NCBI GenBank assembly: GCA_008632985.1
Contig: QPGO01000024.1
Span: 635,848-699,847 of the forward strand
DNA from: Psammoneis japonica
Taxonomy: Eukaryota
Length of the DNA: 64,000 bases
Direction: 5' to 3'
Each line of letters begins with the position of its first letter. The first letter of the stretch is position 1. The position numbers and the translations under genes are program-made. A model generated the notes under the pieces. The model made no database searches and was not told where the DNA came from. It worked only from the letters and a program-made list of their open reading frames with translations. Of this stretch, positions 5,210 through 61,760 are shown one piece after another.

Positions 5210-7255
5210 GAAACAAAGCGGCTGAGCGGAAATGATATCATTGTGTCGAGGTTGGCCATGGGGGAAATGTGTCCACCCGTCCCCGTTTCTACCTGCAATG
5301 AATCATCATCATCACAACCACCTTCAATCTCCAGAGGTAGGGCTACTTTCATTGCGTGTCGAAACTTATTCTCTAGTAAGAAGCTGGCTCTCATGTCGAG
5401 GATATGATAGAAATATCAATAACATTGAATATAGGTCTTCGTCATGATGGACTATGGACCGCAATAAGAGATTAGAAGCATTTCAGAAGTCAGAAGAGAG
5501 AAGGGAGCGGTTAAATCACAACAGATCACAGTGGGCGGGGTCGGTACCGCCATGGCTCAGCACGCTGATATTCACAGATCAGAGCGCGCGCAGATCGCAC
5601 TCGATCCGTCCGTCGTCGATCCGATTTTTTTCGAGCCAAAAATTGGACGCTTCGCTGAACGGCTGTCTCATTGTCTTCATGAACATGCATTTTTTAAGAT
5701 AAAACAGTTGATGCCACCGATCCAAAAGAGCACCCATCATCACATCAGCTGTTTGTCTGTTTGTCCACAAAGGCTTTGAACAATGACTGGCATCAAGAAT
5801 GACTGAACTGTTTCATCAAACGCAGAGAGAAAGAATCAGTGTGGGGCGAGATTCTGTCATGCTTTTGAACGATTCAAGAGTTGACAGCAGATGATGTGAA
5901 GGAAATCAATGAGCACATGGTTGAGTCTGGGCCTGGTGACACTGGAAAGTGACATCCCAAGCAATGTAACCTGTGCTGTTGCCACCGCCAATCTGGGCAG
6001 GAACGTGTCGATGACACATTTTCAAGAAGGCACACCACAGAAGGAACACACCACTCAAAATCTCTTGCAAAGCCACCTCCTCCAACCCCCACAGCCACCC
6101 ATTGGTCTTGGCCTTGTTGCCCTGCTCTGAGCAAGAAACCTCAAATGGAAAAAAGCAAAACACAACAGGTGCAGGCATGTGGATTTTCAAGATTAGATGT
6201 CCAGCGACACATTTTGTTTGCAGCCTGCCCAGATGCTCACACCAAGCAAGCTGGGGATGAATCAACAGGCATGTTCAATGTGGACCCACTTCTCAAAAGC
6301 TTTCCCATGGTTGTCACCCTCTCCAACAATGAGCCTCAATGAGAGCGTGGAGATGAGAGAGGCCAGCAACACTGCTGGCTTTCTAAGAGATCAGAGCTGT
6401 CAGAAGATGTTTTTTAGATGATTCAGAGTTGACAAGGTCAGGGTTGATGGTCGCTGGGTGAGGTCAGCCTGTGTTTCACAAGCTGAGTCCATTGTCTTGA
6501 GGCATGTCATCACAAGGAGAAAAGGCTTGTTTCACATTCAGTCATGCATTTTCAACTTTCCTGTTGCTGTGATGGGTTTCATTCAAAAGAGAATTCCGAG
6601 AATCAGCCAGAGGATGCAGATGACTCCATTCCCAGTTTTGTGCAACAACACAATGACTGTGCACCACAAGCTCCAGGCAGGGGGAGGGGAGACAACGCGA
6701 GCCTGGTTTTCTCAACAACTGTGAGACCAGAGTGACAACAAGAAAGGGACTTTGTGTTGGGAAGAAGCTTGAAGGCAGGAAAATGAAGGGCAGGTCATTG
6801 GCGCTGAGTGGGTTCCTTGGTCACTTCAGGAGCACACACAACAAGAAAAGAGAGGGGTCCAAGAAGGCTCTCAGGGCTGCTGTGAGTGACTGTGCAATGC
6901 ATTGCAGCAAAGATTGCAGTCATCAGACAATTTTTTTTGACAAGATGGCAACAATCTAGCTGGGCTTGCGTCATGCAATTGTCCTTGTCAGGTGCAGAAA
7001 CAAGAGGGTTGAATTGTTTGCACACGATCCCCGGTTTGAAAGTGAGCGTGCACGCAAAAAGCACAAAATCCAAATGACATGCATCATCTCAACAGAAAAA
7101 CAAACCATTGTGTCACACACAAAAAGTTCAATGAATGAGAGACAAAAGCAACTGGCATTCAAACATTTGCCATGACAAATGACCTCAAAATAGAGAAATG
7201 ACAACCAATCAATTGGCCAGGAGTCAATGGCATCCCAACCGGAAAATGACCAAGG

Positions 7256-8576
7256 CACATTCCCACTCTGATGATTTGGCCGCAAAACAAATGCAATTTG
7301 GCCAAATTTGTGTAAATTACAGGCGTCAGGCTGGGAATGAATTCAAACAGGGAAAAAGATCAAAATCTCACGTCGAGCTTGGTGAGGACTGAGGACGCTG
7401 CTGCAGAGCTAGAGAGGTGCCATGCTGGATGACATGACATCATGCAGCAAGATCACGAACCTTGTCAGTGACAATCGTTGTCCATTTTGCGATGGCTCTG
7501 CACTCGAGACTCATGACAAAACCAGTGAAGGTCAGAAGAAAAGCATCCAATCTGCTGGCAAAAGGTGCAGAGAGAGCAGAAAGATTGACGATCGCATGCA
7601 GCATGACTGCAGCATGCATAAAGCATCAATGCCAAATGAAATTTCCACAGCATGCAAGGTTCTAAAAAGTGCTGGACTTGACTCTTGCCTGCTCAGCAAT
7701 GGCCCAAATCCATTTCACAGAGCAAAGAAACACAGAGCAAGTCACAGAGAAGGGCTGCAGACTGCAGACAATGGAGCACAGAGCAAGGCACTGCATGAAT
7801 GAGGCACATTGCCAACGCTGTTGTGCAAACCATTGACCCCCACCAGCATCATTTTCCGACCGCACGACAAGAGTCATGAAACAAGTGCAAACAGCCTTGT
7901 TCATCATCATGTTCCATCACAACAGAGCACAAGCCTTGTTGTCATTGTCGATGACCACAATTCTTGTGTTCTTGACTGTCAATCAAATGACAACCTGGAG
8001 TGTGCACCAAAGAAACACCCCAATGATTCGTCAGAGCACACACTTCCATGTTGATTCAGCATCAAGTTGGCAGACGTGTGGTTTGTGAAGAGTCCCACAT
8101 GAAATCTGAACAAGAGAAACAAAGACAGCAAAAATGCCATTAGTCGACATGGTTGTCACAAGCCACAACAACAATGAAAAATCAAAATTCTGACAACTTG
8201 ATCGCACCAAGCGCAGCCTCATTGATCTGTCTCCACATTCTCACCTTCATAGACAGGATGGTCGTTTGTGCATGAATGGGTCCATTCATGGCAGCAGCCA
8301 TCATGGTTGTTTGCAGATGTTGGAGAAAGAAAAATGGGGCTTGTGACGTGGCACGTTCGAGCTCCCAAAACGCCGAATTTGCCATGAAAATTGTGTTTGC
8401 GGGAGAGAATTTACAACGACCAACACCTGTCACTGTAATTTGCCAACAATTTCAGCTGTAAATTGGCGGATGGAAAACAGATGTGCGATTTTTCTTGTGC
8501 GAGAGTTTCCACAGTGATTTTGTGCAGAACGAAATTACGTTCATTTTGCAGCCAAAATCATTGGGGTGGGAACATG
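7256..8576. mobile_element. Non-autonomous DNA transposon with ~45-bp imperfect TIRs and a probable 7-bp TSD
   Basis: 7256-7299 cacattcccactctgatgatttggccgcaaaacaaatgcaattt versus the reverse complement of 8532-8576 catgttcccaccccaatgattttggctgcaaaatgaacgtaattt. Flanks accaagg (7249-7255) and tccaagg (8577-8583). CA...TG termini. Confidence 0.7.
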
Positions 8577-8760
8577 TCCAAGGCAATGTAAAATTCAGAA
8601 TGTTTCACATGTGTTGACAAAGTGACTTTTGTGATGTTCTGAAGTGTGCAAAAGTCATTGGATTCCATTTTGTGTGCAAAGACCCCTTGCAAATTTGGTC
8701 ATTTTGAAAGTGGTCAGCCCCAGATCCTGACTTTGTCTCACCCATCTGTCTCTGGTCCAT

Positions 8761-9032
8761 TTGTCCCAAGGTGCTGATTGCCATCCCAAGTGCCAGCCAT
8801 TTCTCCAAAACTTGAAGATGATTGGATCTTCAGCAAGAGGAAGGATGAGCACAGTGTCCTCCAGAAAAAGTGGCAGCCCTTTTGCAAAAGCCCAAATGAG
8901 TGGCACAGAGACCGCACCTCTCTTTTGAATGTGTTCTTGAGCTTGCCATTTGTCCTGAGTGGAGCAGCAAGAATGAGTGTAAAATCATGGGCCTCTTGCT
9001 CAATGCAGGAAGCAAATTCAAAAAATTGTGGA
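8761..9032 (+). pseudogene. Hypermutated fragment homologous to 13609-13868 (part of ORF 13328-14242)
   Basis: Direct alignment: KLEDDWI...LQKKWQ...KSPNEW...DRTSL...CEIM/CKIM.LLLNAGSKFKK shared; small indels present. Confidence 0.9.
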
Positions 9033-12000
9033 TGTCCACATGCCACAATCTCAGCAGCAGCCCTTCAGAAACAGCTCCAGCATCTTGCTGTTGTTTGCTT
9101 GTCCCAGAGTGCACCCTTTCTGGATGGCACCTCAACAACACTCAGCTCTGGCAGCTGGCCAAAGTCTCCTTCAAAGAGCTTGGCAGTGGAGGGCTGTTTC
9201 TGACCTGCCAGAGGTGCTGTCCCACACACATGCTTGAAGGTTGTCTCTGGCGTGGAGGGAGCCTGTTGTGCAACTCCCAGAACACATGCACCCTTTCTGG
9301 TCTGTGCCTCCAGAATGTTCAACTCTGGCAGTCAGCACAGGCAATCTTCCTTGAGAGTTCTCCATCAACAAGCTTGTTGGGGGCTGTTCCTGACTTTTGC
9401 ATGTGTTGAGTGACTGATGTCAGAGGTGCCCTTCTGTGAATGTGCTTGAAGGTTGTCATCTCCAGAGGAAACCCATCACACAACTCACTCTTTTGGATGG
9501 AGCTGGGCTCTGCTGCACAGTGGCAAATGTGCAAGAAGCAAAAATTGCTTGCATCAAAAAATGACACACCCAGGCACCCAGGCATTTGGGTTGGTGGCAA
9601 ATGATGAAAATGCAGTTGTCAGGCCAGAGTTTGTTTGGCATCGTCAGCATTTGACAGCATGCTGTGTGTTTTCATGATGCACATTTTCTGCACTTCCACA
9701 GTTTTGGCACATGTCCAATGCCATTTTCCACTTCAATGCAAGCAGTGCTCCACATTTGCTCTCAAACCAATTTCTTCACCACTCCCCCCACCCCACCCCT
9801 GCAAAAGCAGTGCCAGTTTGGGTTGCCCAGGGCCCAAGCCCACCTTGGTGCACTTTTCCAGTGCTCTTGGCCTTGCTGGCACATCATCTCTGGCAAAGCA
9901 AAACAAACTGCAGTGTCAAATGCCAGAAAGTGAGTCCAAGTCCAAGTGGGCTCACATTGGGCAAGACAAGCTGACAGCAGCAGGGGTGAGAATGAGAAAT
10001 GAAAAGCTCTGCTTCCTCTTGGGGAAGTTCTGCCAGGGTGACACATTTGTGTGACCTCTGGAAGAGAGAAGAACAAAAGCAGCATCATCAACCACCAGCC
10101 ACAAATGCCAGTGCAATGTTGGGTGTTGGTGGTTTGGTGTTTTTTCCTCACAATCAGAAGAAAGGGTGGGATGTGGCACCAATCCTCCCTTGGCTCACTC
10201 TGACTCCACATGAACTGGAGACCAAAATTGCCAAGCCAGCACCTTGCAAAGAAAGATGAGGGTTGCTGTTGACTCAAGTCTCAAGTGCTTGGTGGTGTGT
10301 GGTGCATCGTCACTGCTGGGGTGCCTCCAGCACTTTGCAGCAAACTCACTCCCTTGCTGCTCTTTTGCTTGTTTTGTGCCATCAACTTTGAAGCCCCAAA
10401 CACAGCACCTTAAAAATGCCACCTTCACCCAAAGAAATTCCCTTTGGCCAACACTTTTCTGGCAAACCTCAGCAGTTTTTTTTTTGTTTTCATGGCCAAC
10501 AAGTCAATCTTGGGTCAATCAGCTGAGCCATCAATGATGTCCCCACTGCATCTTGAAATCCTCAATGGCAGAGCATTGTTGTCTTCCTCAATGGACAGTG
10601 ATGAAATTGAGCCATTGTTTGTGGTGGAGATGTTGGAATGTGCCAATTCCAAATCTTGCTTTGACTGTGTCTGCAAAGAATGTGATGGTGATGGCAAAGG
10701 TGATTGGTTCAGCAATGCTGTCTGCCTGCCAGAATGATTGCTGGTGTTGACTGAGACCATGTTGCTGGAGAATTCTGGCAACAAGTGCATGTGCTGTTGA
10801 CCTTGGAATTTGGTTTGTGCCAATGCAGTCAAGGTTCAGACTGCACTGGAGGATGAAGTCTGCCATTTGGAAGAAGAAGAAGAAGAAGGCGCCATTGTTG
10901 GTTGTGACTGCCATGTTGCAGGTTGTTGGAAGCTGTCAGTTGTGGGGACGCTCGTGATTTTTGTGCAAGCGTGCACACAGAAGAAGCGGCGTGCAGCACA
11001 TGTGCCTTGTTCATGCTGGTGGGAACATTTGGTTTTTTACACCATGCGATGGTTGCTCCCTCTGCACTCTTGGGTCTTCTGGGTTGAAGTTGGGAATCAT
11101 GAAAAAGTGCTGGTGCTTGATCACATGATCTGAAATGTTCTGACTGAATTGTTGAAGTTGTTTGCAGAACTGCCAAAGAAAAGCATCAAGGACCATCATC
11201 TGATGAGCATGATCAAATGAACAGGCACATTGTCCACATCACACACAAATGCGCTGGTGCATGAACAATGCAATGCTGGATGGCACAGGTGAGCTCAAAT
11301 GCGTTTGTGCATTTGCATGACACACCACATTGTGTCAATTGTGGCATTGCGGTTGTGTCAACAAGACAAGCCAATGACAACCCATTTGTCTCATTGGCTG
11401 CTCCAATCAACAAGGAGAGGAGGTCTGGACCATGGTGCCATGTCCAAATTTCAATGGAGGAATGAGGTGTGCCTCCAATCTGTGGCACATGTGTTTCTGT
11501 GTGGGGCACTGCATGGTTCTGATCAGATCAAGCAGCTCAAGGTCAGATTTAAAAGGTGATTTCTCAAAACTGTGGTTGCAAATGCAAGCAAATGAGGTTC
11601 TTTGGCTGAAGCCAACTCCATTGCCATGGAAGCAAGATTGGGGTTTGTGCCGCAGTGGATGGCAAATCATGCTGCCACAGTCAAGACAAGCACACACGCA
11701 ATTGATGCCAACAGCAAATGCCTTGGTGCAAATGACTGTCTCTGTCATTTCCCACAAAACACTGCAAAGTTCACATCCACTCTGCTGCTTAAAGCAGAGA
11801 AAGGGGAAGCTGCATTCAGGAAAAGACAGTGGCATGAGTCTTTCTTCTGTGTGAGCAAAACAAGCACCAAAGGGAGCAACAGCAATCAAGAGGAGCATTT
11901 TTCTTGGGACAATGCTTTGTGTCTTCTTTTGCTTGAGGCCGAGCATGAGAATTGGACTTTGCTCTGCCTTCTTCCTGGGTGCAACAATGCCAGTGCTTTC

Positions 12001-12635
12001 AACTGAGTGTTTGATTCATTCTTGTCTTGCAGCTCCTTCCACCCAACCGCTGCCACACACATCATGAATGATGCTTGGGCTCCTTCAACAAGTCATTTTG
12101 TCACAATCTGTGATGGACACAATGGGAACAACGAGAATCACTGTCAGCTGCAAAGCATGCAATCAACTGTGGACATTCAGCATCACAAGTCCAAGCCAGA
12201 GCTCCGTCGCCAACCACAACTTTGACCCAAACAGCGCCCAATTTGAAGAAGATGATGGCAACATGAGTCACCACAATGATGCTCAAAGCATGGCTCCCTG
12301 GCAAGGGAATTGCAACACAACCTTTGCCAATTGCAGTGCTGTGCATGTGTGGTGCCAGCTGTCCTTCAGATGCACACATTGCCAACAAGAGAAGTGCACA
12401 CACCCTCAGAGAACGTCTTCTTCTCACAAAAATCTTCTGAAGGGTGGCTGCTGATTTGGATGGATCCACACTGATGTCTTCAGGTCAACAACAGTTGTTT
12501 TAACAGTTGACGCCTGGACAGCAGCATGGTTTGGCAGTTCACACCATGTGCGGCTGCTGGCACACCCCAAAGAGCCCAATTTTTCAGAAGTTTGGCAGCA
12601 ACAACTCACAGAGAGGCAGAGGGGGAACAGACAGA

Positions 12636-12731
12636 TGGGGTGCAGATTCAGATTTCCATCCAAAATAGGTGCAGATCTTATGCAACCCCCTAAACACAGG
12701 TACAGATCCTTGCTGTAAATGGGTGCAGATG
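12636..12731 (+). repeat. Four short GGT(G/A)CAGAT repeats spaced ~22-31 bp at the right edge of island 1 (possible subterminal repeats)
   Basis: ggtgcagat three times and ggtacagat once within ~100 bp. Confidence 0.5.
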
Positions 12732-13076
12732 TTCTATGATGCTCAGGAAAGCTCAGGTTACCAGCAGCAGTTCTCATGCTCGCTCGCGATCGCGCTCATC
12801 AAGCAATCAGTCCGTCTGTCAGTCATTTTCTCTAACGTCGCGAGCGGGCGCAATCGTTTTGTCGCGCCAAAAAAATGAGCAAACTTTTTTCGCGTCTTGT
12901 GCGTGTGCGTGTGCTGGCATGTGGCATGGCATGTGCTAACCTTACACAAACACACAACGAACGCACGCGACGACAGGTGCTTACGATCGTTTCTGGAGTC
13001 CATCGCCTTGTCGCTCATCAGCACAGTCAGATCGCAGGAAATCAGTATTGCATATTGGTAAAGCGTCGAAAGAACC

Positions 13077-14242
13077 ATGCCTCCTACAAGTACCGAGAAC
13101 AGTAACGACGAGAACCTCGAGCCGGTCGCCAATAACCGAGGAATGGTAGATACTTCCTCGTCAGGCGCTACCGGTATTAACAAGCCATCCTTGCAAGACG
13201 CTGATACCAAGTATACTGTTTGTCGTTTTGAAATCAGTAGGCTTGAGGGCGGCCGTGGCTTGCCGAGAATGACTACCACATTGACCTTGTCGTATCGAAA
13301 CACGGACTCTTTGATATCGTCACGTCCGTGTTTGACGTGCTGCAGAAAGAGAATTTGACTCTCGATTCGTACTACAGCCATCTATGGTCGCTTCAGTTCA
13401 ACGACACCAAGTTCAACTATGGTTGGAGAGACTGCAGTGGGGCAGCGGTCAAGAACCACCTGGATCACAAAGAGCCGCATGTGCTGAACGGGCTCGCAAA
13501 ACATCTCCAAGACGGGCAGCAAGGATCCTTTTCAGGGGAATCTGCAACTTTTGATTTTGTAGTCAAGAGCGCTGCTTTTAAGGAAATCCGTACGAACCAA
13601 GTAGACGCTTATCCCAAGGTGACTGCCATCCCGAACGCCATTTCTTCGAAACTTGAAGATGATTGGATCTCCGACGAAAGGAAGGATCAGTGCCGCATCC
13701 TTCAGAAAAAGTGGCAGTCCTTTTATAAAAGCCCAAACGAATGGCGTAGAGACCGGACCTCTCTTGAATATGTTCTCAAGCTTCCCATTCGTCCAGAGTG
13801 GAGCGGCGACGAGTGTGAAATCATGGCCCTCTTGCTCAATGCAGGAAGCAAATTCAAAAAATCGTGGACAACTGTTCTGCAGTATGCCTTTTGCGATCGC
13901 GCCGAAACCGCTACATCCGGAGAATGGTACAAGCTGCAGCGAGAAAGCTATACTCGTGACCACTATGGACGATCCATGTCAAATGACGCCAAAATACAGT
14001 TGGCCAAGCGACTTGCCAGGGCTCGTGTCAACAAGTTACTAAAGCAGGGAGGTCCTCCCCAGGGTCCTCCACCTCATCCTTTTGTCAAGACGGAAACCGT
14101 GTTGCGCAAGCGTGGACTGATTACCGATGACATGGATGACAAGACAAAGAAACGTCAGCTTCGTATGTTTGAATGGGATGTGCGAGAGGGGCTATTCGAC
14201 AGCGGTGAGGAGGGCAGGAACGGCGGTGTTCGTATTCGTTAG
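13077..14242 (+). CDS. Hypothetical protein (intact member of a repeated family; main ORF 13328-14242, possible upstream exon from 13077)
   Basis: 304-aa ORF with normal TA/CG content; a homologous decayed fragment lies at 8761-9032. No family recognised. Confidence 0.55.
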
Positions 14243-14590
14243 AGGTTCATGGGTAACCAGAAGTTCCAGAGAATGCATTGGCATGTTTGAACGCTTTAAC
14301 TTTTGTGTGATGTGACCGATGGAAGTGAATAGGAATGATCCGGTTTCGTCTTTGGTAAAGAATCGAATCCGGCTTTCGTTCTAATTAGGTAGAAATACGC
14401 AAATCTTTTTAGTAGGGATCTCCATGAGCAGATAATCGAGAGTCATTTGCAACATATTCAACACGCAACATACTCTAGTTTCTTCATCTGTGACATCATA
14501 CCAAGGAGTGCTCGTCGATCTGCTAGAGCAATTGAGAAAACAGGTTGTTCCTGTGCTTTTGGTTACAATCGTCTTTAATGAGGTTCTACT

Positions 14591-15757: not shown

Positions 15758-17051
15758 GGTCTTGCGTCAAGGGGTCTTGCTATTGGACGCGAATGAACTC
15801 TGCGCTCTGCGCACTCGGATCTCGGATCGTTCCCGACGCGACACCAATAAGCTAATTTTCGTTTTCTCGACACCTACTCTTGCGCGACAGATGGCTAATG
15901 AGACCATGCATATGATGCAGGATCACGCCATGTGAGATGTGAGATGTTGTGACATGGCGAACAGTTGTTTTTATTACAGAAGTTGCGTGCCTGATGGCGC
16001 CGTTTAGTTGTGCGGACTTTTTGAATATTTTGAAGTTGATTTTGGATTTTTTCATTTTTCGATCTATTCAACGTGGATCAAACAAGCAGACAAACACACC
16101 ACGCGATCAAACTGCCGGCTGTTGGAAAGCATTTTTCGGAGGTTGGACGGGACGGGCAGGTGGAATGGCTTCAACTTTCTTCTTCCAAGGCTTGAAGCCA
16201 GCAGGATTGAGCCATTGTCCAAGAAAATTGGCCTCTTGAACACATCATTTTTGCACTTCACAGAGGGCACACTTCTTGGTGGCTGGCCCTCGCAAGAGCC
16301 CACTCTCTCTTGTTGCAACAAGGGGCGCAAGACTTTCTAAAAACAAGACAACAGATGAAAACCAAAAGTGATGTCAAAAGGCTGGGCATCATTGTCACAA
16401 GTTTCAACATCCTAACTGTGCACAGTCTTTTCAACAGCAGCAGCTTGTGCACAACATCGTGAGCCTTCTTCGCTCTTGACCATGACATTTTTCATCAGCT
16501 GGGTCCAGCCAAATCTGTCTTTGCAGCACTCAGTTTGGGTTTTCACAGCTGTTGTTGAGTTTGTCCATCAAATCTGATGCCACATGCCAACTTTGTGACT
16601 TCCACCAGTGGGGATTGTCTCCATGGGGATGACACAATCTGGCCAACAAAAAGGCCTTGATTTGCAGTGCCGAGCTTTGGACCAACCTCTTGTGGAGGAA
16701 ATCTCAGCCCAACATCTGCACATCATCAAACAGAGGAGGAGCTCCAGTCCCATTGACTCATCAAAAGGTCTTGTCACACTCCAGCAAAGTCAAGTTGCTG
16801 AGCAAAGCTCTCCATCTGAAATGAAATGATGATTTGGCCAAAATTTTGAGAAGAATGAGTTCCTTGTGTTCCTCCTTGCCAAGCAAGGGGCTGTGCCTCA
16901 ATGTGACACTCCTTGGAACAGATCCTGGGCACACCAGCCCCCCTGGAGCAAAGCAACACCCATGTGCTGTTTGAGACAATTTGTGCTGTTGAGTCATGCA
17001 CACATGAGATTTGTGTGACAGCTGGGGCAGGCCATCCTTTTTTGCTGCCCC

Positions 17052-17105
<54 letters not shown>

Positions 17106-17108
17106 TGC
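17052..17108. repeat. (TGT)n-(TGC)n compound trinucleotide microsatellite
   Basis: tgttgttgt...ttgctgctgctg visible directly. Confidence 0.95.
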
Positions 17109-18339
17109 CACAGCCTTCAGAACAGACACTGGGACTGTCACAGGAGCAGAGCTGTGCCGTGCACTCCAAATGGCGTGGCAGTCAGCTGCAAGTGCAAAAC
17201 TGAAGTGCCGCAGTGCTGAACAATGTCAGTTGTGTTTGGGAAGCAACAAGGGTGGTGTGCAGGAGAAGAGCAAGTGCAGCTGCACAACCAACAAGTCACA
17301 TTGTGGCCTTGTTGTAGCTGATGCAGCTGAAACTGTGAAATGTGTTTGCACTGGGCTGACTTGAGAAAACAAAAAATGCAAAGGTTTGTGACTCATGAAT
17401 CTTGTTTCTCTGCAGCTCTGTTGTCTGTTGCTCTTGAGCCTTTTGCAGCATGCAACGACCCCCAATCAATCCTGTTCACACCTTCAGAAGCTCAAGCACC
17501 AATGGCCAATCTGACAGCTCATGCAGTCTGTGACCACCAATGTCAACAAGAGTTGCAAAATGGCAACCAAATGGACATTTCAGCCCGGGGATTCTGTCTG
17601 TGAACAAATGACAGACACTGCAGTGAACACAAGAGCTGCAAATGCAATGCAGCATCTTGTCTGATGAAAACTCTGGAACAGATCACAGCAGATTCACTGG
17701 AAGGAGAAGAAGCAGAAGTGCCTCAAGCCACATCTTGAACAACACCACCACTTTGCACCCATCCCAGTGGCATGGGTGCTGCGGCAGCTCAGTCAGAAAG
17801 GAGGCTCAAGAGCTGCCCTGCAATTGGTCACCTCTAAAATTTCTGACAAATGGCAAAAGCCACACTCAAAAGTTTGTGGATTCATCAGTGCAAGGTTTGG
17901 CATTGCTCCAGCAAGAGCAGCTCACTGTTGCATCAAGGGATTGCAAATTCCCTCTTCACAGATTAGCGCCAGACATTTCTGCAATGCACCAACTGCAAAG
18001 ACAGCCAAGTCAAGACAAACTGTCATTGCGTGTGAACAATGAAAAACCCATGCCAAGCACTGACAGCATCCCAAACCTGCTGCAGCATGAAGACAAAGCA
18101 CCAAAAATGATTCAAAGTCTGTGCATGATTGCTCTTTGCAAATTTCTTGTGTGCACAAAACCCAGTCCTGTGTTCATGTGCTCTCTCAACTGCACAAATC
18201 CTCCTTTTCTCTCTGCAAATGAGGGGTGAAAAACCACATCTCATCACCACTGCAACAGCTGGCATTTGGCATTTCTTTTCTTGGCAACCAAGCTGTGCCC
18301 CAAGGCAAGAAGGGCTGCTGCACCACTTGCAAGCAGTGC

Positions 18340-21000
18340 CACATCAAAATGACTGGCAATTGTGCAAGTGACTCTGGCAGCAAGTCTCTTTGCTTTGTGG
18401 ATGCTTGACTTGAACATGGGGCACACCATTGCCAACCAATTCAGCAACATGGGGGTGGAGTGAGTCAAGTGTTCATCAACCGAATCAAACAAGTGTGCCT
18501 TGTTTTTTGCCAGACAGTCATCAACTCTTGAGTGGATGGCCTTGACTTTTGCCTTGGTGTCACAACAATGAGAAGACTTCCTGGTTTCAGAGACATGGCC
18601 ATGAAAACAATGTCATTGCAACAATCCCACAATTTCCACCATTGGGACCAGATGTGTGAATCTGTTGCAGCTGGTTGAGCCACTGCCCAGTCCAATTGTT
18701 GCCAGCAGTGTTGCTGCCCTGATCTTGAGATCTGCTTTCTGCTGAACATGGCTGCTGAGCTTCACTTTGCCATGCAGAAAACCTGCCATTAAAGATGTGA
18801 TGCCACCCTGTTCCATCTTGAGAATGGAAGACAGCACAGATGCTGTGGCATGCTTTGTCAGAATGTGGTGGAAACTTTTCTTGAAACCAGCAGGACTCTG
18901 TCACACAACACCAAGTCACACGCAAAGAAGGAGAAGTGTCCACCTCATTGCACTTCCTTCTTGCACAAGCTCTGAAGGAAAGCTCAGCACCATTGTTCGT
19001 TGCAAGGGCAACCAAGAACATGATCCCTGTCTTCCACAGGAGACTGGCAATGAGTGCAACAGTCCAGGCAAATTGGACTGTGCCAGCAGATGATTTCATC
19101 AGTGGGCAAAAGATCTTGAACAAGTTTGACAGCTGTTTTGCATGAACCTGCCAGTTGATGGAATGCAAGATGGCATCAGACCATCCATGCTTGTCCTTCA
19201 TGCAGATGCAGAGTGCAAGAGCAGATGCTTCATGGTGCAGCACTGATGTGAACTTTGTCACAGAAGATTCATTTGCAAAACAAGACTTGCCACACAAGGA
19301 GGCAAGCATGGTGCCAGCTTCTTGTTTCCCAAGAAGGAACCATGGTGCCATCCTGCCAGGCAACCAGCTTGGACATTGCTCAACTGAGCCAGCACGGAGA
19401 GCAACTCATGTGGAACAATGTCTTCCTGGTGACTTTTTGTCCATGACGCCACCACTTGAGCACCGGCAAGGTCACCAACAGAGCACTCTGATCCATGTCC
19501 ATTGGAGTGAATGGAAAATTTCATGCAGCATGTCCCAATCAGAAGCCAGAGCATGTTTGCAATGTGACGTTGGTGTGCAAAGTCACTGTCTGGGTCTGGC
19601 AATGCCTTGTCATCTAAAAGGGGGCACAAAGTGAAAATTGGAAACACTGTGAACCAGAGAGGAGGAGTTGTTGCAAAACAATTCAACTTCCAATGGAAAG
19701 ACCATTTGAGAGTGCTCTGCAACTTGGAGAAGGAAGCAAAGAAACAACAACAATCTGTGAGCCTCAGCTTGGTCTGAGGATGGCCAAAAACCAAAAACCA
19801 AGACTGCACAATCAACCTGAGGAGGAGTGCCATTGATGGTCAAAGTCCAGCCAAAGAAAGTGTTAAAATCAAATCCAACAAAGAGCACAGCAGCCAAGGA
19901 ATGAAAAGAGGAGTTGGAACAATCCTGCACAGAGCACCACTTTGTGTTGAAAAAGGCTTGGCACAGGCGTGCTCTTTCTTCTTGACACAATTGGCTTGAG
20001 TGTGGACATCACTTCCAACCATGCCCAGATGACATGTTCTGGGTGTGGTTGGTGTTTTTGTTCTGCCAACTTCACTTTTTGTCATGCAAGCACATGGGCT
20101 GGCCTTCATTGCTTGCTTGGTCAAAATGATGGGCAACAGCAGCATGACCAGCCTGAGCAACACTTGCCACGAAGCTCAATCTTAACAAGAGATGAGCAAA
20201 CAATGCAGGACCCATTGGTGTGTTGCAGCTGGTGAGCCACTTCTTGATGAAAATGATTTTGCATGTGCAACAACATCTCAGTGATGTGCTCTCTCCTTCC
20301 TCCAGCAAAAATTGGACAAATTCCAGCACATTTGGAGCCATCATTGAATTCTTGAGTGTGCTTGTCATCTTTGAGCAACAAACAAAGGTTGAATGTTTGC
20401 TCAACACACACATGCTGGACTCCAGAAAGCAGCTTGGCAGATGCAACAAACAACAAATGTCTCTGGCAGCAATCAACAGGAGCAAAAAATGGCAAATGCT
20501 TCACAACAAAATGGGTTTTGACAAGATCAAGAATGTGCAGCAACTGGGTTGGGCCTGGCTGGCAACTCACCCTTGATCCAATTTTTCTTCTCTTTTCTTG
20601 TTGACCCAAGTTGCAAAAATGAGGGTGTCATTGCAACAAGGCAGAGCAAACACAAGCTGGTGCAACAATGAGAGCACAACTTTGTGAGCAAGAAGTGCCA
20701 AACGGTGGCTTGTGAAGACAACTTGACACTCTTCTCCTTGACAATTGTGCAAGGAACAAGGAGCCAAGAAGGAACTGCTGTCTGGGCACCACCCTTCTGC
20801 TGTGGCTCTCATGGCACACAATGTGTTGGTCAGGGTGTGCACATGTGGTGTGTCAGAGGAAGCACACACTGCTGACACATGAAGCACAAGTGGCCATTTT
20901 GTTCCAAGAGTCTTGCATTGCCAAGACAAACTTCACTCAAGAGACTTTGGAGAGTCTCCTCTCTCATAATTTTCAATCTGATTGCAGCAGCACCAGTGCC
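18340..21000 (-). mobile_element. 5'-truncated, decayed non-LTR retrotransposon (RNase H domain and C-terminal region)
   Basis: Minus-strand fragments FGW.L, PSSDQAEAHRLLLFLCFL (cf. PSSYRAEAYGLLSFLRFL), FCNNSS (cf. YCDN), WTKSHQED...LSVLAQL.NVQAGCLA (cf. W.K.HQD...LN..AD.LA), GWSDAILHSINW, HIFNGRFS, WWKLWDCCND (cf. LW..RN). Consensus motifs recalled from algal non-LTR elements, not from a search. Confidence 0.7.
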
Positions 21001-21557
21001 TTGAATCCACTGTGTGTTGACATGTGCCATTGTCTGCTGGCTGTGCTCTGCAGCCAGTCACACCCGCGCTTCGCGAATCATCACAATGCGTGAGGAAGGG
21101 TGGGGTCATCACCCCAGCTGGAGCCTTTTCATTTCTCTCCAGGCCCCAGAGAGGATTCTTATACTCTCCACCGGTGCGCTATGAGGCCCATTTCATTGTT
21201 CCTGCCCTCCCGCACTTTTGGATGCTGTGTGGCTCTTTCTGTGTCCGAGATTGCTGTCGCACTCATTTGCAAACTTTAAACCCTAGTTTGCATTCACCGC
21301 TACGTGCTTTAATAACACAGAGTCCATGGCTCAAGGAGAAAAGCTATTGACAGCACACTATCGTGTTGCAACACAAGAGCTCAATTGCTGATCTACGAAA
21401 CTAGTAACTACCTAATTTACGGTGTTGTATTTCGATCCCTGATGTGCTTCGCGTCAGTAACCTAGAACACTTGTATGCTTCTTGTAGAATGGCTATCAAG
21501 CGACTTTCATGGTAACGGTGTGTTCTCGACAATTAGTTTAGCATTCCGTTTGATCGC

Positions 21558-22031: not shown

Positions 22032-22339
22032 TGTTCGGTAGATTCAAGGATAAGAAGGCTCACAAAAATGCAGTATGAATCTTTGGGAAAGGGTTTTGGG
22101 GTGGAGTTGGTTTCAATTGTATTCTCCTTTTGCGCCGCAGTTGCCAATATCTTTTGTCAACTTCTCACGTCATGGTCGACTCCTCAGACCGGCGTACCGC
22201 GCGCGTTAAACGCACTACGCACGCACCGGTATTTACTGTTGACATGCCGCAGAATTCGTGACTTGGAATGCCGGTTCTCCAGTTGTGATCATACAATTTT
22301 CCTCACGTCGATTGACAATTGACATACCGGTACAGTACG

Positions 22340-30449: not shown

Positions 30450-30895
30450 GGGCTAAGTGACCGGTACTCTACTCTCTAGTAGTTAGTAGCTCTAGCAGCA
30501 GCTCTACTCTCTACTAGAGAGAGTCGAGTACCAGGTTAGGTAGTCTTTAAAGTGTCGGCAGCGCAGACGGATCGGACAGATACCGTACGTAGATAAGATA
30601 GAATTAGTCTGAGAGCTCTACTAGAGTAGAGAGTAGAGTAGCCATAGCGCTACGCTACTCTCTCTCTACTCTAGAGTAGTACCGGTAGAGAGAGGAGAGT
30701 AGCTACTCCAGCTAGCTCTACTCTCTAGCTATAGCGTAGTAGGGCTAGCTAGCTAGGCTAGCTACTAGTAGATAGCTACTCTCTCGTCTCTCGCGTCGCG
30801 CGCTCTATCTTATCTATTAGATAGATCTATCTATCGGTAGATTATCACGTCTTGCATTCCATCCAGCCATTATGATACCTCTCTCTCTACTTGCT
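30450..30895. repeat. TA/CG-rich, TG/CA-poor low-complexity tract (CTAG/TAGAG/CTACT motifs) upstream of the FCP gene
   Basis: 30601-30840 has dozens of TA but only 1 TG and 2 CA (counted by eye). Confidence 0.85.
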
Positions 30896-31094
30896 ACAAA
30901 AAGGAGAGCGAGACCTCGAGGTAGGAAGCAACACTCCTTGAACTCGTATCTTGCTACGTAAACTTTCTACCTGCAACTCTGGTACATGAAATTCGCGACA
31001 CGCATTTTGAATCAAAGGATCTTCTCTGACGAGCCTCCGCCTCTCAATGCTCTCACTCTTTGAACGTACCAAGCAGTCGTAACAAGAAGTAACA

Positions 31095-31718
31095 ATGAAG
31101 CTCGCCGTCGCCGCCCTCCTCATCAGCTCTGCTGCCGCCTTCGCCCCTGCCCAGAACGGACGGGCTTCCACCACCCTCAATGTCAACGAGCTCGAGCTTG
31201 GAGTCACTGAACCCCTAGGTGTGTTTGATCCCCTCGGATGGCTCGAGACCGAGCCCCAGGCCTTCGAACGTCGTCGTGCCGTTGAGCGTAAGCACGGACG
31301 TGTCGCAATGGCTGCCGTTGTTGGAGTCATCGTGCACAACAACCACATTGTCTTCGATGGATACCTCTCCCCCTCCAACAACCTCAAGTTCTCCGATGTT
31401 CCCACCGGCATTGACGGAATCCGCGCAATCCCCACCGCCGGACTTGCCCAGATCCTTGCTTTCTTCGCCCTTGTCGAGCTCGCCTGGATGCCTGCCTCCA
31501 AGTACGACGGAGACTATGGTGTTGGTTACTTCGGTACCGATATTGAGGACCCCGAAGAGAAGGCCCGCAAGCTTAATGTCGAGCTCAACAACGGCCGTGC
31601 TGCTATGATGGGTATCATGGGTAACATGGTTGCTGAGGTTCTCACCGGACAAACCATGTACGAGCAATACGCCGATGGACACATCTCCCCCTTCGGTGAT
31701 GGACAGGGTGTCTTCTAA
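31095..31718 (+). CDS. Lhcf: Fucoxanthin-chlorophyll a/c binding protein (Lhcf; FCP-A-like), copy 1
   Basis: Signal peptide plus AF-AP plastid motif, FDPLG, ERKHGRVAMAA, ELNNGRAAMMG. Closely resembles the Chaetoceros PSII FCP-A sequence as I recall it. Confidence 0.97.
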   Translation: MKLAVAALLISSAAAFAPAQNGRASTTLNVNELELGVTEPLGVFDPLGWLETEPQAFERRRAVERKHGRVAMAAVVGVIVHNNHIVFDGYLSPSNNLKFSDVPTGIDGIRAIPTAGLAQILAFFALVELAWMPASKYDGDYGVGYFGTDIEDPEEKARKLNVELNNGRAAMMGIMGNMVAEVLTGQTMYEQYADGHISPFGDGQGVF

Positions 31719-32059
31719 GATGTGACCTTTCGCAAGTCATGAAACTATGCTACGTCTGCAGTTTGGGTGAACAATGAGCGCTTCTTCCATTGCGAGTAGA
31801 CTTTTTACAATAGAGATTCTTAGCAAGGACAACAGTTGTTTTCAGCTATACATAGCAGGTCATTATGTTTGTGTAGAGAATGTCTATGTTTGCCATGGCA
31901 TGTTCTTATTACTTATCTTGCGGGCATCCCAACCCCAAACATTCATCCTTGATCTATCAACTATCAACCTTCAAAACTGATTCGAAATGAGGGACGACGC
32001 TGGCAGCTAAAGACATTTTGGCGATGATTCGAGACGCCAAAAAAGGGATTTTTGGCGTC

Positions 32060-35000
32060 ACAATCAAACAGGTTTGTGGCGTTTGTGGTGCCACTACAGC
32101 GCGATTTGCGTTGCATGCACACACGACATCCACATAGATGGGTGCGGTGCGTCCGTGTGTCTAACAAATGACAAGGATTCGCCTTCTTATGTAGAAAAAG
32201 CAGGTAGAGGCAGGACCAACGTTCTGCCGTCGCTCAGAAGCTCAAGCTTTTTCGGACATGTGCAAACAGATGCTTTCGCAATGCTTTGTTTCAGATCATC
32301 TTGATTGAGTTGTTCCTGGAAGCAGCTTGAACAACGAGCATTGCATCCACAAGCGCTTGCTGAGCTCTTGTCATTCCAGCCTCGCTGCCATGCAATGCTG
32401 CCGTGGAAAGCTCCTTTCGGTTTCCCAACACCGTCGTGCTGTGCAGGCAAACCTGTCGCCCAGTGGCAACCATCATGCCTTTGCAGTCGGCATGCTCTTC
32501 TGTCACAGAGAGTGATGATCAAATGGAAACGACTGGAACAGCAATCAACCCAGAAGAACGTTTGGATAATTTGGCTGAATCTTCGCTGTGATTTTTGATG
32601 ATGCCTGTGTGCACGCAGTTTTCTTCACTTTCTTTTGGTTCAAGCTCGGCTTCCTGGCATCAGCCTTGAGGGGTTGAATCTTTGGCATCGTGTCTCCGAT
32701 GTAAATTTCATCATGGATGAATGCCCCATGTTCTTTGCCTTTCACCACTTTTGTGCTGTTCACTGTTCACACAGGTGCTGCTGCCATTGATGACTTGAAT
32801 GGCACAGAGTTGCTTGGTGGCAGCAAGAACAAGCTTGACACGAGAAGCCTCCAAGTCGGAATCATTTGTCAAGACGAATCATGCGGTCCTTTGGATGCCA
32901 AAAGAAGGATGCTGCATTCGGAAGCCGAGGCAGCATCACTTGAAGGGGCACGTTGGGTCTCAAGTGCTTGATGGCACATGGTGCAGGTCGCCATTGGGGC
33001 ATTTCCAGTGCTCTGAGATGAACTTTTGATCTTCAAACGGGACTTCCTCATCACTCTTTTTGCCCTTCACGCCATCAACCTTGAAGCCTCGAATGTGCTC
33101 TGCCCAGCAAGAACCAGCTTCACCCAAGAACTCCCCCTTCATCAATGAAAATGCGTCTCGGGTGAATCTTGGCAGTTTTGTTTCCTTCTCGCGATTGATG
33201 ATTTTGGATCGATCCCAGTGCGCCTGAACCATCTTGGCTGATTTCTTCTAAAGGGCGGCCAGTTTGGATGGATCCGTGCTGACAACTCCAGGTGAGCAAT
33301 GGTTGTTTCAGGATTTGACACTTGAACAGTGCTGCACGTCATGGTGCGATGCCATCTTCCATCAAGTTTTTGGAAGATTGGTGCTGACGTCCCCAGTCTG
33401 CGGGGAAAAGAAAAAGAATTTGCAACAGACCGCTCCACTGCAGCAGCAACAATGGTGGCACTCTCTCCACTGGCTGGCACTGCATGCAAGACGAGAGACG
33501 AGGCTCATCACACTTTGCACAGTCGAAACTCGCCTTGGCTTCATCTTCAGCAATGAGGCGATGAGCGATGAGAAAAGTGATGGGAAGCAGAGCAGACTCT
33601 GCTGCTCTGCTAGATGTGACAGAGGGGAGCAAGCCTCTGCAAGGTCCGATGCTTTTTTTGCGAGGTCCAATGCATTTTTAAAAAAAGCAATTGAACCTCA
33701 TGCAGTGCAGCAGGCAAAAAAGAAAGCACAACACAAGAGCATCAATGCAATGTGCACAACATTGTGGTTGTGACATCCATCCATCCCAGCCCAAAGCCTC
33801 AAATGTTTCCATTGCATCCTGCCCTTCTCCACCTGGAAGTCAATGTGCCACTTCGTCACTCGCAGGCACGCACGTGCGGCAATGGTTGCCCATTTCACTT
33901 GTGTCACATCGGCGGGAAGTTTTGGCTCTCGGAACCCAAGCAACGGCCCCTCTCTGGTGATGTGAAGAGCAGAAGACCCACAATTGTGATGATGTGGTGT
34001 GTTTCAAGATGTTTCACTGCTGCAAACAGCTCTGTGAGACACTCGTTGACCTTGCTGAGAATGCCGGCAGCTTTGTGTTGATCGGAGCTTGGCAGAGTGT
34101 TGTGTCTTTTTCAAGACAGACCAACAGTGAGTCAGCACAAGGTGCACAAGCCACATTTGGTGGACGGAAACTCAAGCAGAATGACTTGGATTGAAAGATG
34201 TTCCTGTGTGTGCGTGTCGATGCAACTGGCATTGTAACTCCATTTTCGATGATGAGATGCGGATGCATGGCATGATTCATGGGCAAATCACTGTCGTCAC
34301 ATCATCACGTGAATCGAAAGAGATTCCATGTGAGGTGAGTCATTAAACTCTCACACACTGCATTTTCTCTGCATTTTGGGAATGACCATTTCTTGCTGTT
34401 GCCAGTGTCAGCACGCGAAAGCCAGGTTGCTGCCAAATGGATTCGTTGTTGCTTCGCCAAGACTCCAGAGATCGAGCTCGCATCTTTGGAAGTTTCAGCG
34501 GGGGCGGCAGCGGCGATGTTGCAAACAATTGGATGCAATCCATTCAAAATGGAGCAGGAGGCAGCAACAAGCAGCAATGCAGTGCATTGACACAACACCA
34601 GCCATGCCAGTGTAGACATTGCACATGTGACGGGGTTGACTCACAAGTCAATTTTGGTGCTCGTTCTGCAAAATCTGGTGCAGACGAGAAATTCAGTCCA
34701 AACCTCATTGTCTTGACCAATGCACTGCTGTCTCCATGGGGGAGAGTCGTTTGGGCGGGATGCAAAGTTGCAGCACCCAAGAATCAAAACGAGTGGAGAA
34801 CCCAAATTGAAAAGACACAATCTGGACCATGCGGCAGTGGCGGCACAGTCTGCACTGCTGGATTGCCAGGCAAGTGCTGCAAAGTTGCGTCGAACATTTG
34901 CAGGAGTGCACAGCAGAAGATTGACTTTTGAATGTCGTGTTCAACAGCAGCACTTGTGTGGTTGGCTCTGTGGGCAGTCTTTCATGACACACCCGCTGTG

Positions 35001-35440
35001 GCCCGGACACGATCTCACACGGACAAACGAAGGAAGGAGCAGCAATCCATTTTCCAATGGCAACCCCGCTGAAACGCACTTTCAATGATGAAGCCTGGTT
35101 GGATTGCATGCTGAATGTCACACAGCATGCATGGTGGAACTTCTTCGAGAAAGACAAGGACCCCCCTGCCACACACCAAATGTCTTGTTGGAACTCCCAC
35201 TGCTCCCTCGCAACCGGCTGCTTCAGTTTCTCTCCATCCTCCTCACCTCTTTGCAGCAGCAGCAGCAAAGAGGTGCAACAAAGGCTGCATTGCAATCTGT
35301 TGCGGCATCCCGACACTGCCACAGGGATTGTTCTTGCTCGTTTTCGTGCCTGTTCTCATGATGGATTCCTCCAACCGCGAATGAACATTCACATGACATT
35401 TGAAAAGAAAAACACAAAAACCTTTTTTTTCTCTTCTAAG
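32060..35440. mobile_element. Island 3: TpA-depleted but partly CpG-retaining repeat island bounded by hairpins
   Basis: 33241-33600 has 1 TA versus 13 CG (counted by eye). Hairpin at 32033-32059 and palindrome at 35454-35481 lie at the edges. No family recognised. Confidence 0.7.
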
Positions 35441-56708: not shown

Positions 56709-56750
56709 TTCTATAGTGACCCATCAATTTTCTTGCTGGTTTGCAGTATT

Positions 56751-59219: not shown

Positions 59220-59409
59220 AACTACAAGTACACTACATTATTCCTACTCTCTATTCCGTTGTTCGTTCGTTCGTTGGCAAGGTTGGCGAAAGGGACTGTA
59301 CTCCAGAGTCGAATCCAACTTGGCGGCTTTTAGAAGCTGAGTGTGAGATAGCTTTTCATTGGCGCTGTTGGATGATGTCGGCTGCTCGTCCCCGAAAAAA
59401 TAAAAAATA

Positions 59410-61760
59410 AAAAGCATTCTCAAGCAAAAGTGCGATCTCGCTGCATCCACATCCGAGGGGGTGAATCCGTCATGGCGTCTTCCAGGAATGACTGTGCATC
59501 CGCGTGGTGCACAAAGGAGAAAATCAGCCACAAGCTGCCGCGCCACATTTAAATGACATTGGAGGGACTGCCCACCAGAGGATTGTAGATGAGCAGGAGG
59601 TGTTGTTCTTTTGTTCCATGCAATGACACACGTTCTGTCCTGATGAAAGAGGGTCATCCGCAGTTTTGTCGGATTCTCCAAAAATGGACAACAGCAAGTC
59701 AGAAGTCCTGCAAAGCTCCAAGAGCACAGTGCCTCAAGCAGGGCACATATTCTTCAGATGAAGAAAAATGGTTTCAGTCTTCTCAATGCTTTGCACATTG
59801 TGTGTGCCCACAACATTCTTGCTTGCTTGTAAGTCAACATCGCACGCTGGAATCCATTGGCCCTTTGGTGGTTGAATCTGTGCACAATCAAATCTTTCCA
59901 CTTCTGCTGACCCTCAGCCAATGATGTCTTCATGCCCATTCTTGAGATTCTGAATGTCACAATGACTTTGGCATTCTGTGCTCCCTCAGCAAACCGGTTT
60001 AAAAAGACATGCTTTGCTTTTCACTTGGCCCCTTCAGTGCTGGCTGGGCAAGTTCAATGTGGCATGATCTTCTCTGGCTGCAGAGCTGTCATTCCCACAA
60101 CACAACTTCTCACTGCTGAAAGGCAAGGGAATGGTTTGATTCCCACCAGTGACTCCTTTTTGTCTTTCAGTTTGAGAGCTGGTCTTCATTTAGCAGCAGC
60201 AAATGCAACTGGCTCATTCGTTTGACATTTTTTCCAAAAAAGCAGTCATGTCCATTGTTTTTAAACCCAGCCATCATTGCCAGCAACCAAATCTCTTTTG
60301 CACAAATGCCCAGCTGTTTTCTCTCAACTTCTGGGGCTGGCAAGTTGCCAGCAATGGTTGCACAAATGTCAGCAACACATGTGCTCCCCAACTCAATGCC
60401 AAAATGAGAACATCACAATTGCAGAGCTCTGCTTCTGGCAAAAGTTTGGCTCCACCTTTGGCTGTGCCTCTGTTGACTTTGTTTTTTGTTTTTTCTTGAT
60501 GGGCTCATCTGGTGCCAGCTCTAACTTGTCATTTGTGCCCCTGTTGAATGTTCTGGCTCTCTGTGCCAGGGGTGGTGGTGGTGGTGGAAAGCTCCAACTT
60601 CAAATGAGTGAAAATCCCATTTGTTGGCTTGCCCCTTTTGAAAGTGCACCACCACTGTTGCTGAGTTTGACAGATCCACTGGTGTGTGCCTGGCAGTGTC
60701 CTCCATTGTTGGCAAGCCTGGAGGAGGAATTGTCAGCAGCACTTGCTTCTGGCAACAAATCTGGTTTGTTGGCACTCTCAGCTCCAGGCTCCCACAAGAA
60801 ATTTGTTGTTTTGCAATGTGCCCCCCCCCCCCCCTCCCCTGTGCCAAGCAAAAGCAAGCCCAATGACCTGAGAGCAGGCACCATCTGCACAGGAGTGGCC
60901 CTCTCCACTGACACAAACTCCCTCAACAACAGCCACCAGCTGCTGTGGGAGTGAACTCATCAGCACCAGCCATGCTGGCAGCAGGTGTGACAATGGTCAC
61001 AGGAGCGTTGACACTCAGATGACAATGACAAACAAGTCAATGACAACAGACAAAAGAAACCAAGAAAATGTTGAGCTTTCTTTTGGCATGAGAGTTGAGA
61101 AACATCTTTGTCCATGCATGCTGAAGTTGATGTTCATTGGCTTTGATGACAGAAAACAAGGTTCAACTGCAGCTGGGGGAAACTTGTGTGTTGGCTCCAC
61201 ATTTGTTCTTTCTTTTCTTGGCTTGGGTTTGCACAATCCTGTCTGGACAGTTGCTGATTGCTGCACCACCCATTGTCTGTTTTGGACTTGACCCTGGACT
61301 GGCATGTTGGATGTGCAAATGCTGGATCATTTGGTGTGTTTCTCTTTTATTTGTTGGACTCCAGAACCTCTGCTCTTGTCAACACTCGCATTGCACTTGC
61401 ACAAGCCCCACACTGACATCCCAGATCTTTTCAACTGTTGCACAGCTTGTGGTTTGCAACTGTTGGCACTCCTCTGTAGAGGAGAAACTGTTTCAAGTGG
61501 TTGTGTCTCTCTAGCCTGTGCAAGTGTTCCAGTCAACAGTGTCTGCCACGTTGACAACAGCAGTTGCAGCCATGAGCATGTCTCTCTGTGTGATCATGCA
61601 AAATGATCCCAAGGGCAATTTCTCTCAATGGGAAATGGGTCTGTCATTGTGGGCATCACACATGAGAAACATGCCCTCTAATCTCTAACCTTTGGTTGAA
61701 AGCTCACGCAACTGAACTTGTTTCTTTGTTGTCAGAGTGGGAATGATCTTTCTCGTTTGT
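59410..61760. mobile_element. Island 4: TpA/CpG-depleted repeat island
   Basis: Same dinucleotide signature and spurious six-frame ORFs as islands 1-2; no family recognised. Confidence 0.7.

Follow-up and report, generated by a model that had tools for sequence, protein, structure and literature searches.

Loss of TpA from repeat-derived islands of a diatom genome, Psammoneis japonica, suggests dinucleotide-specific transition hypermutation with a chemistry opposite to that of fungal RIP

Defences that direct point mutations at mobile DNA are known chiefly from fungi, in the form of repeat-induced point mutation (RIP), and from vertebrates, through APOBEC, and both are cytosine-based. In ascomycetes, RIP introduces near-saturating, dinucleotide-specific transitions into blocks of repeats and transposons and destroys their coding capacity, leaving adjacent genes intact; it converts C:G into T:A pairs mainly at CpA, which creates TpA and lowers the guanine-plus-cytosine (G+C) content, it is triggered by duplication above a threshold of a few hundred bp, involves a RID-type DNA methyltransferase-like gene, acts before meiosis, and its tracts are strand-coherent. 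Clustered transitions in mobile elements are also produced by APOBEC, which converts C into U on complementary DNA (cDNA), and by ADAR/ADAT, which convert adenosine into inosine (A-to-I) on RNA, TadA/ADAT-type adenosine deaminases favouring U or T on the 5' side. Here, a stretch of 64,000 nucleotides (nt) from the diatom Psammoneis japonica (GenBank assembly GCA_008632985.1, contig QPGO01000024.1, positions 635,848 to 699,847), referred to as the window, is described, in which four islands have lost nearly all TpA and most of their CpG. The islands are probably silenced repeat DNA that was hypermutated where it lies, at the level of the double strand, by dinucleotide-specific transitions, with a dominant change of TpA into TpG or CpA on top of the ordinary decay of methylated CpG.

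An initial annotation, made from the letters of this DNA, had described fairly sharply bounded islands poor in TA and CG and about 18 kb long in total, and this description holds: there are four islands, with a combined length of 17,426 nt, against 46,574 nt for the rest of the window (Table 1). They contain 56 TA dinucleotides (observed/expected ratio, O/E, 0.05) versus 1983 outside (0.62), and 234 CG (0.23) versus 2631 (0.99), whereas TG (1895, O/E 1.80, versus 3385, O/E 1.16) and CA (1987, O/E 1.77, versus 3221, O/E 1.12) are raised and base composition remains the same, with G+C at 47.8% inside versus 47.7% for the remainder of the window. From the background per-base rates, 742 TA, 984 CG, 1267 TG, and 1205 CA would be expected in the islands, and the resulting deficit of TA plus CG (1436) is matched by the surplus of TG plus CA (1410). 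TA makes up 686 of the 1436 lost dinucleotides, and about 92% of the island TA has disappeared. The distribution is bimodal, as zero to two TA are present in 82 of the 83 segments of 200 nt lying wholly inside the islands and at least three in 226 of the 229 lying wholly outside; the longest run without TA spans 1431 nt in island 1 (8980–10411) and 233 nt outside the islands, and mononucleotide shuffles of the islands (n = 200) always gave at least 1116 TA. The stretch 9661–9960 of island 1, quoted at the outset as free of both dinucleotides, has 0 TA and 0 CG in the site lists.

TA loss is uniform across the island blocks (O/E 0.02–0.09), whereas CG loss is uneven (O/E 0.08–0.55), with values of 0.55 in island 3, 0.35 at 5700–8600, and 0.08–0.12 elsewhere; island 1 is a composite in this respect, since its CG O/E is 0.35 at 5700–8600 versus 0.11 at 8601–12666. 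The early description of islands nearly free of TA and mostly free of CG is accurate for TA and needs one correction for CG, the unevenness of its loss. Decay of 5-methylcytosine (5mC) at CpG explains the CG half of the change and its variable completeness between islands, but it cannot remove TpA. Moreover, TA loss is complete where half of the CG persist, in island 3, and the TA process would therefore be separate from, and faster than, CpG decay, in agreement with the first proposal that a process beyond 5mC deamination is needed. The islands begin and end sharply, within about 100 nt, and of the four edges read, which belong to islands 1 and 2, three have TA and CG boundaries 90–115 nt apart.

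The islands resemble the products of RIP in the near-saturation of dinucleotide-specific transitions within repeat or transposon blocks, in the destruction of coding capacity, and in the integrity of adjacent genes. However, the chemistry is the reverse, and RIP does not fit, as had been stated from the start: TpA is lost by A:T>G:C changes, G+C is the same inside and outside, CpA is enriched 1.77-fold, and the RIP index TpA/ApT is 56/982 = 0.06, when RIP would raise it. Strand-coherent tracts, which RIP leaves, were not found by runs tests in the islands (z of −2.9, −0.5, −0.3, and −0.7, comparable to background segments).

The direction of the change can be read from a decayed host-gene fragment in island 1 and a paralogue of normal composition located 4.6 kb away. 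DNA identity is 81% between 8761–9032 of the fragment and 13609–13868 of the paralogue, and reaches 93% in purine/pyrimidine coding (8758–9039 versus 13606–13875). In 270 aligned nt, the paralogue has 5 TA and 15 CG and the island fragment 1 CG; TA or CG outside becomes TG or CA in the island at 15 of the 47 differences, with one difference in the opposite direction, and all five TA of the paralogue are altered, while CG>TG/CA accounts for 10 differences. The two copies also differ by 10 transversions in about 270 nt and by indels. Outgroup proteins (n = 10) agree with the residue of the outside copy at 20 of the 26 positions that differ in 89 codons and with that of the island copy at two, thus the changes arose on the island lineage; the codon changes polarised in this way include conserved Tyr TAT to Cys (TGT, TGC, and TGT), Arg CGT to CAC and CGT to TGT, and Ser TCG to TTG. 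This gene has 10 homologues, whose neighbours on related metagenome contigs are ordinary host genes, and the host gene (13247–14242) matched no Pfam family and, with an AlphaFold model (predicted local distance difference test, pLDDT, 79.8), no PDB fold at E ≤ 0.001.

Two segments are common to islands 1 and 3; an ordinary four-letter BLASTN self-search of the window did not report them, and they were detected in purine/pyrimidine coding, where shuffle nulls (n = 20) reached a maximum of 66 bits. Of their 317 aligned nt, 204 are identical, 96 differ by transitions, and 17 by transversions. Among the 51 sites with TG or CA in both copies, 26 agree and 25 carry the opposite doublet, and transitions at both positions affect 25 of 69 TG, CA, TA, or CG dinucleotides compared with 19 among the 237 remaining dinucleotides (Fisher p 7e-8). 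Since a TA-free master copy is not expected to give such swaps, each copy was mutated separately. CG is kept in island 3 and replaced by TG or CA in island 1 at seven sites, the reverse being found at one, which would agree with island 3 being younger. The conversion of CG into TG or CA on both strands is apparent from these seven sites versus one, from the CG O/E of 0.23 versus 0.99, and from the Arg and Ser codon changes mentioned above. Paralogue comparison, outgroup polarity, and the copies in islands 1 and 3 all favour the original view that the islands arose by mutation of TA and CG into TG and CA, rather than by native composition.

Both strands were struck equally. The region of the retroelement-like open reading frame (ORF) in island 2 has 140 TG and 147 CA, without strand bias, and all islands are symmetric, which rejects the editing of single-stranded RNA or cDNA; APOBEC and ADAR/ADAT, in contrast, produce one-strand G>A or A>G changes and saturate no single dinucleotide, and APOBEC-type DNA editing would turn C into T at TC and CC in a strand-coordinated manner. 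AA, GA, TT, TC, and CC are not depleted in the islands (AA O/E 1.23 versus 1.12 in the background, TC 1.02 versus 1.12 outside, and CC 0.87 versus 0.84). TA in the context TTA or TAA represents 41 of the 56 survivors, compared with about 38% in the background (own sum over 16 flanking contexts), with TTAA resisting the change most. From the roughly 92% loss of TA set against the 10 transversions in about 270 nt, a rough estimate would place the TpA rate at tens of times that of the average site. A>G on one strand is indistinguishable from T>C on the other.

That the islands are real sequence, and not a product of basecalling, is favoured by a public DNA run (X1), as the check by independent reads first suggested would require. 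Contigs from this run, at about 60x word depth, cover 8998–10410, 10477–13857, 13834–17041, and 17119–23000 with 2–16 differences each, and span the right edge of island 1 (12666) and both edges of island 2 (16065 and 21160) into the flanking genes; since the same islands reappear in them in continuity with these genes, a basecalling artefact is unlikely. Depth in the single-copy parts of the islands equals that of the flanks, thus both haplotypes have the TA-free sequence. The allelic or contig differences in these single-copy parts include eight G>A, four of which sit in TG; as about 47% of island G is preceded by T (own estimate), this is the level expected by chance and is uninformative on present activity. 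A second run (X2), which is RNA-like because of its spliced joints at CT..AC, has cover in 12 of 30 bins, mostly over flanking genes. Its cover over the islands is small, 4.6–7.3 in three island bins, and missing cover was not counted as silence. The host gene at 13086–14242 had no cover in this run.

The process spared several sequences that might have been affected if duplication or TA content were sufficient. A light-harvesting (Chloroa_b-bind) gene copy and its inverted counterpart, 99.5% identical over 633 bp, have normal TA and CG, as do two tandem arrays (154 bp x 3.0 and 113 bp x 4.0), thus duplication alone is not the trigger; the pair could, however, simply be recent, and its high identity is due to a duplication of recent date or to gene conversion that is still under way. 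In this regard, the islands also differ from RIP, which is triggered by duplication, and the term repeat-targeted, as worded initially, does not hold. TA-rich intergenic DNA of low complexity also remains unmutated close to island 3, and the 500-nt bin that holds most of it (30501–31000) has a TA O/E of 1.75 and a TG+CA O/E of 0.43, the mirror image of the islands. This stretch is located just upstream of the light-harvesting gene starting near 31097. The two light-harvesting (chlorophyll a/c-binding) copies lie 23 kb apart and have a G+C of 0.58.

Table 1. Positions of the islands and of the other features discussed, in window coordinates (position 1 is the first letter of the window)
Feature	Position	Strand	Remarks
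Island 1	5700..12666	.	6967 nt; TA O/E 0.05, CG O/E 0.20
Island 2	16065..21160	.	5096 nt; TA O/E 0.03, CG O/E 0.12; about single copy in DNA run X1
Island 3	32205..35437	.	3233 nt; TA O/E 0.04, CG O/E still 0.55
Island 4	59550..61679	.	2130 nt; TA O/E 0.08, CG O/E 0.08
Offset zones at island edges	12666-12780, 16066-16153, 21065-21160		TA without CG, or CG without TA
Multi-copy repeat in island 1	5690..9072	.	Seen from X1 depth; left end at the point where the TA-free zone begins
Decayed host-gene fragment	8750..9235	+	Island 1; family of the normal copy 13086-14242
Paralogue of normal composition	13086..14242	+	Outside the island, unmutated comparator; frame break near 13245
Shared segment A	10274..10502	+	Homologous to 32953-33201 (island 3); 159 bits, purine/pyrimidine coding
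Shared segment B	12433..12528	+	Homologous to 33244-33336 (island 3); 123 bits, purine/pyrimidine coding
Decayed ORF remnant, island 2	18346..19552	-	tblastn similarity to the C-terminal ~400 residues of RNase H-like (RVT_3)/zf-RVT proteins
TA-rich CTAG/TAGAG/CTCTA low-complexity intergenic stretch	30460..30830	.	Negative control; 1.4 kb from island 3, unmutated
Chloroa_b-bind (light-harvesting) copy	31088..31720	+	Negative control; 99.5% identical over 633 bp to inverted copy 55260-54628; normal TA, CG
Tandem array, 154 bp x 3.0	44812-45263		98% matches; TA and CG normal
Tandem array, 113 bp x 4.0	48284-48719		91% matches; TA and CG normal

The islands are dead DNA, mostly derived from repeats or transposons. 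Within island 1, summed depth of X1 contigs is 867–1384 in the five full bins between 5903 and 9072, compared with about 55–65 in flanking single-copy DNA, and 265.6 in the edge bin 5269–5902; a flanking contig stops at 5693, with joints at 5685/5691. Among the copies of this repeat, the four transition classes are found at 98, 104, 88, and 90 places, about equal numbers, and transversions at 152 places, a pattern that would agree with independent mutation of the copies. The longest island ORF lies in island 2 (18587–19405, minus strand, 272 amino acids) and lacks Tyr altogether, with 5.9% Cys, whereas its relatives have 2.1–3.8% Tyr; three of its four matches carry zf-RVT or RVT_3, scoring below the Pfam cut-offs. 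Judged from these similarities, the remnant in which it lies is probably a relic non-LTR (long terminal repeat) retrotransposon, and relics of non-LTR retroelements have been reported in Phaeodactylum, according to PMC4504042. The description as transposon islands is therefore supported in part, by the multi-copy repeat, the RNase H/zf-RVT-like ORF, and the segments shared by islands 1 and 3, and lacks support in the domain searches and in island 4, to which no identity was assigned. A 141-residue ORF of island 1 gave no match in a protein search, and Rfam and transfer RNA (tRNA) scans of the 64-kb window gave 0 matches. Island 2 also contains a trinucleotide run (16907–17203) that would translate into poly-Leu, poly-Val/Ala, or poly-Ser/Asn/Thr/Ala, according to the frame and strand chosen, and within it, at 17042–17118, X1 reads appear cut.

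The surrounding ORFs are ordinary eukaryotic genes, including those for chorismate synthase, a subtilase, TAP42, an NIF phosphatase, and chlorophyll a/c-binding proteins. Among the named relatives of the chorismate synthase, the best come without exception from diatoms (Seminavis, Conticribra, Skeletonema, and Discostella), and no relative exceeds 92% identity, which points to a diatom with no proteins of its own in the database. The gene-rich DNA of the window also holds an exact 54-nt direct repeat, at 41056–41109 and 43459–43512, 2.4 kb apart.

Any explanation of the islands has to account for a real sequence, for the direction of the changes, their TA/CG specificity, strand symmetry, and independence between copies, and for the sparing of expressed-type duplicates, tandem repeats, and intergenic DNA. 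Mutation before insertion, in which TA and CG would be lost in the replication cycle of an element, e.g., through A-to-I plus C-to-U editing of retroelement RNA or cDNA, or in which a mutated master would be amplified, seems unlikely, although the retroelement-like ORF of island 2 and the multi-copy family at 5.7–9.07 kb, whose left end is the start of the TA-free zone, speak in its favour. One-strand RNA editing would leave a TG surplus on the sense strand only, in disagreement with the symmetric counts, and the TG-versus-CA swaps between islands 1 and 3 place mutation after the separation of the copies; moreover, a fragment of an ordinary host gene was mutated as well, and the TA and CG edges, about 100 nt apart, do not coincide in one common junction. 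Foreign DNA of viral or horizontal origin, natively poor in TA and CG, is extremely improbable, even though many RNA viruses are short of both CpG and UpA, because the relatives are normal in composition, in the Tyr content of those of the island ORF and in the 5 TA and 15 CG of the host paralogue, and outgroups place the changes on the island lineage. To our knowledge, no genome has a TA O/E near 0.05.

Passive decay of unexpressed and poorly repaired heterochromatin, whether by ultraviolet (UV) lesions at TpA and methylated CpG or by polymerase-eta-like error-prone patch repair after 5mC deamination, is quite unlikely. TG and CA are the expected products of spontaneous 5mC deamination at CG, CG decay varies between islands as if their ages differed, and, according to PMC5124317, diatom methylation is chiefly of the CpG type. 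Nevertheless, the disappearance of TA where half of the CG remain contradicts repair patches seeded by CG deamination, the loss of TC and CC predicted for UV damage is not seen, DNA with so few transversions would be too young for an ordinary rate to erase 92% of its TA, and the TA-rich intergenic DNA near island 3 is intact. Polymerase eta, given its WA motif, predicts the loss of AA too, and AA shows none. The restriction of the change to TA and CG rejects polymerase-eta WA mutagenesis and UV damage, and likewise biased gene conversion, for which no TA specificity would be expected; selection against CpG and UpA was also discarded, as the islands are non-coding wrecks. A systematic miscalling of modified bases, 5mC at CG and a modified A or T at TA, is very unlikely: the sharp island bounds would coincide with methylated DNA, and X1, with its library type not on record, possibly comes from the same project, but its contigs, rebuilt from raw reads, match the islands over 1.4–8 kb with few differences at about 60x, which noisy long reads would not achieve, and miscalling one true sequence would not yield the indels and transversions of the host-gene fragment or the swaps between islands 1 and 3.

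In-place hypermutation, the preferred explanation, would combine two processes. In the dominant and faster one, the A:T pair of TpA would be changed to G:C on either strand at random, turning TA into TG or CA until near completion, whereas in the second one CpG would decay to TG or CA in the ordinary way, presumably by deamination of 5mC. A later transition within TG or CA would re-create TA or CG, to be converted again, so that old copies would drift by swaps between TG and CA, and such continuing scrambling would account for discordant and concordant doublets being equally frequent (1:1). The target, we infer, would be silenced chromatin rather than duplication as such, and the reaction would be driven by an enzyme.

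Several points weigh against in-place hypermutation. All of it is based on a single 64-kb window of a single organism, and the silenced state of the islands is itself inferred. X1, whose library type is not on record, may derive from the same sample as the assembly, a caveat for its value as a set of independent reads. The alignment of islands 1 and 3, from which the 96 transitions were counted, used transition-tolerant scoring, which may inflate transitions outside well-aligned cores. The left edge of island 1 is the edge of the multi-copy repeat, and an element arriving already mutated would fit this too. No Pfam transposon domain was found in 24 six-frame translations of the islands with stops read as X; at E ≤ 0.1, the scan returned nothing beyond a chance-level Spt20_SEP match (E 0.097), with no reverse transcriptase domain in island 2 and a blank result for island 4. 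Four library matches, all weak (E 2.7e-9 to 1.5e-4), are what links the island-2 ORF to retroelements. TA-free islands are absent from five related metagenome loci (42 kb in total) that were located through the host-gene family, a set too small and too rich in genes for a statement on how common the pattern is. Finally, among the 18 ORFs scanned in the rest of the window, none had a match to a deaminase, to a TET/JBP dioxygenase, or to a DNA methyltransferase; one matches Methyltransf_4, a tRNA methylase family.

The chemistry of in-place hypermutation could consist of adenine deamination in TpA, or of oxidation or another modification of thymine in TpA followed by pairing with G, two routes that the sequence cannot separate. 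A thymine-based route would have a counterpart in 5-hydroxymethyluracil, which prefers TpA, as an oxidised T mispairing with G would give T>C at this dinucleotide. In dinoflagellates, which are likewise algae of the SAR (Stramenopiles, Alveolata, Rhizaria) clade, this base replaces 12–68% of thymidine, according to PMC6313786; however, it is not known in diatoms and has not been reported to be mutagenic or transposon-specific. Eukaryotic N6-methyladenine (6mA), deposited by AMT1, is likewise a symmetric mark on a palindromic A/T dinucleotide, but this dinucleotide is ApT and not TpA, and the mark is placed on transcribed genes rather than transposons (10.1101/2024.10.28.620566). For these reasons, and since, according to the same source, the mark shows no compositional depletion and is undetected in Phaeodactylum, where 5mC alone is described, decay of 6mA is disfavoured.

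More tentatively, and with somewhat less confidence than would make it the expected outcome, the islands may reflect a dedicated diatom pathway acting at the DNA level, an analogue of RIP with the opposite chemistry, which would change A:T to G:C at TpA in silenced repeats on either strand, by adenine deamination or thymine oxidation/modification, and would thereby remove TATA-type signals, Tyr codons, and TAA and TAG stops. Such a pathway could still be acting, with TG and CA being re-randomised. A full-text literature search, with supplements and most subscription journals outside its reach, found no description, for the transposons of diatoms or any other eukaryote, of TpA loss or of hypermutation by A:T>G:C changes.

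Repeat-directed point mutation is a process of a known kind, and we rate its chemistry at TpA as new. If true, the erasure of TpA by A:T>G:C changes in silenced DNA would represent a new mutational chemistry in major marine primary producers and would imply a DNA-modifying enzyme not yet described; if the enzyme acting here is an adenine deaminase that naturally works on double-strand DNA, or a dinucleotide-specific thymine-modifying enzyme, it would be of interest to builders of base editors. The detection and dating of diatom repeats would change as well, as the copies would quickly lose both four-letter similarity and protein domains. Since the BLASTN self-search did not report the repeat that islands 1 and 3 have in common, and purine/pyrimidine coding revealed it, the repeat content of diatom genomes and the ages of their transposons may be underestimated.

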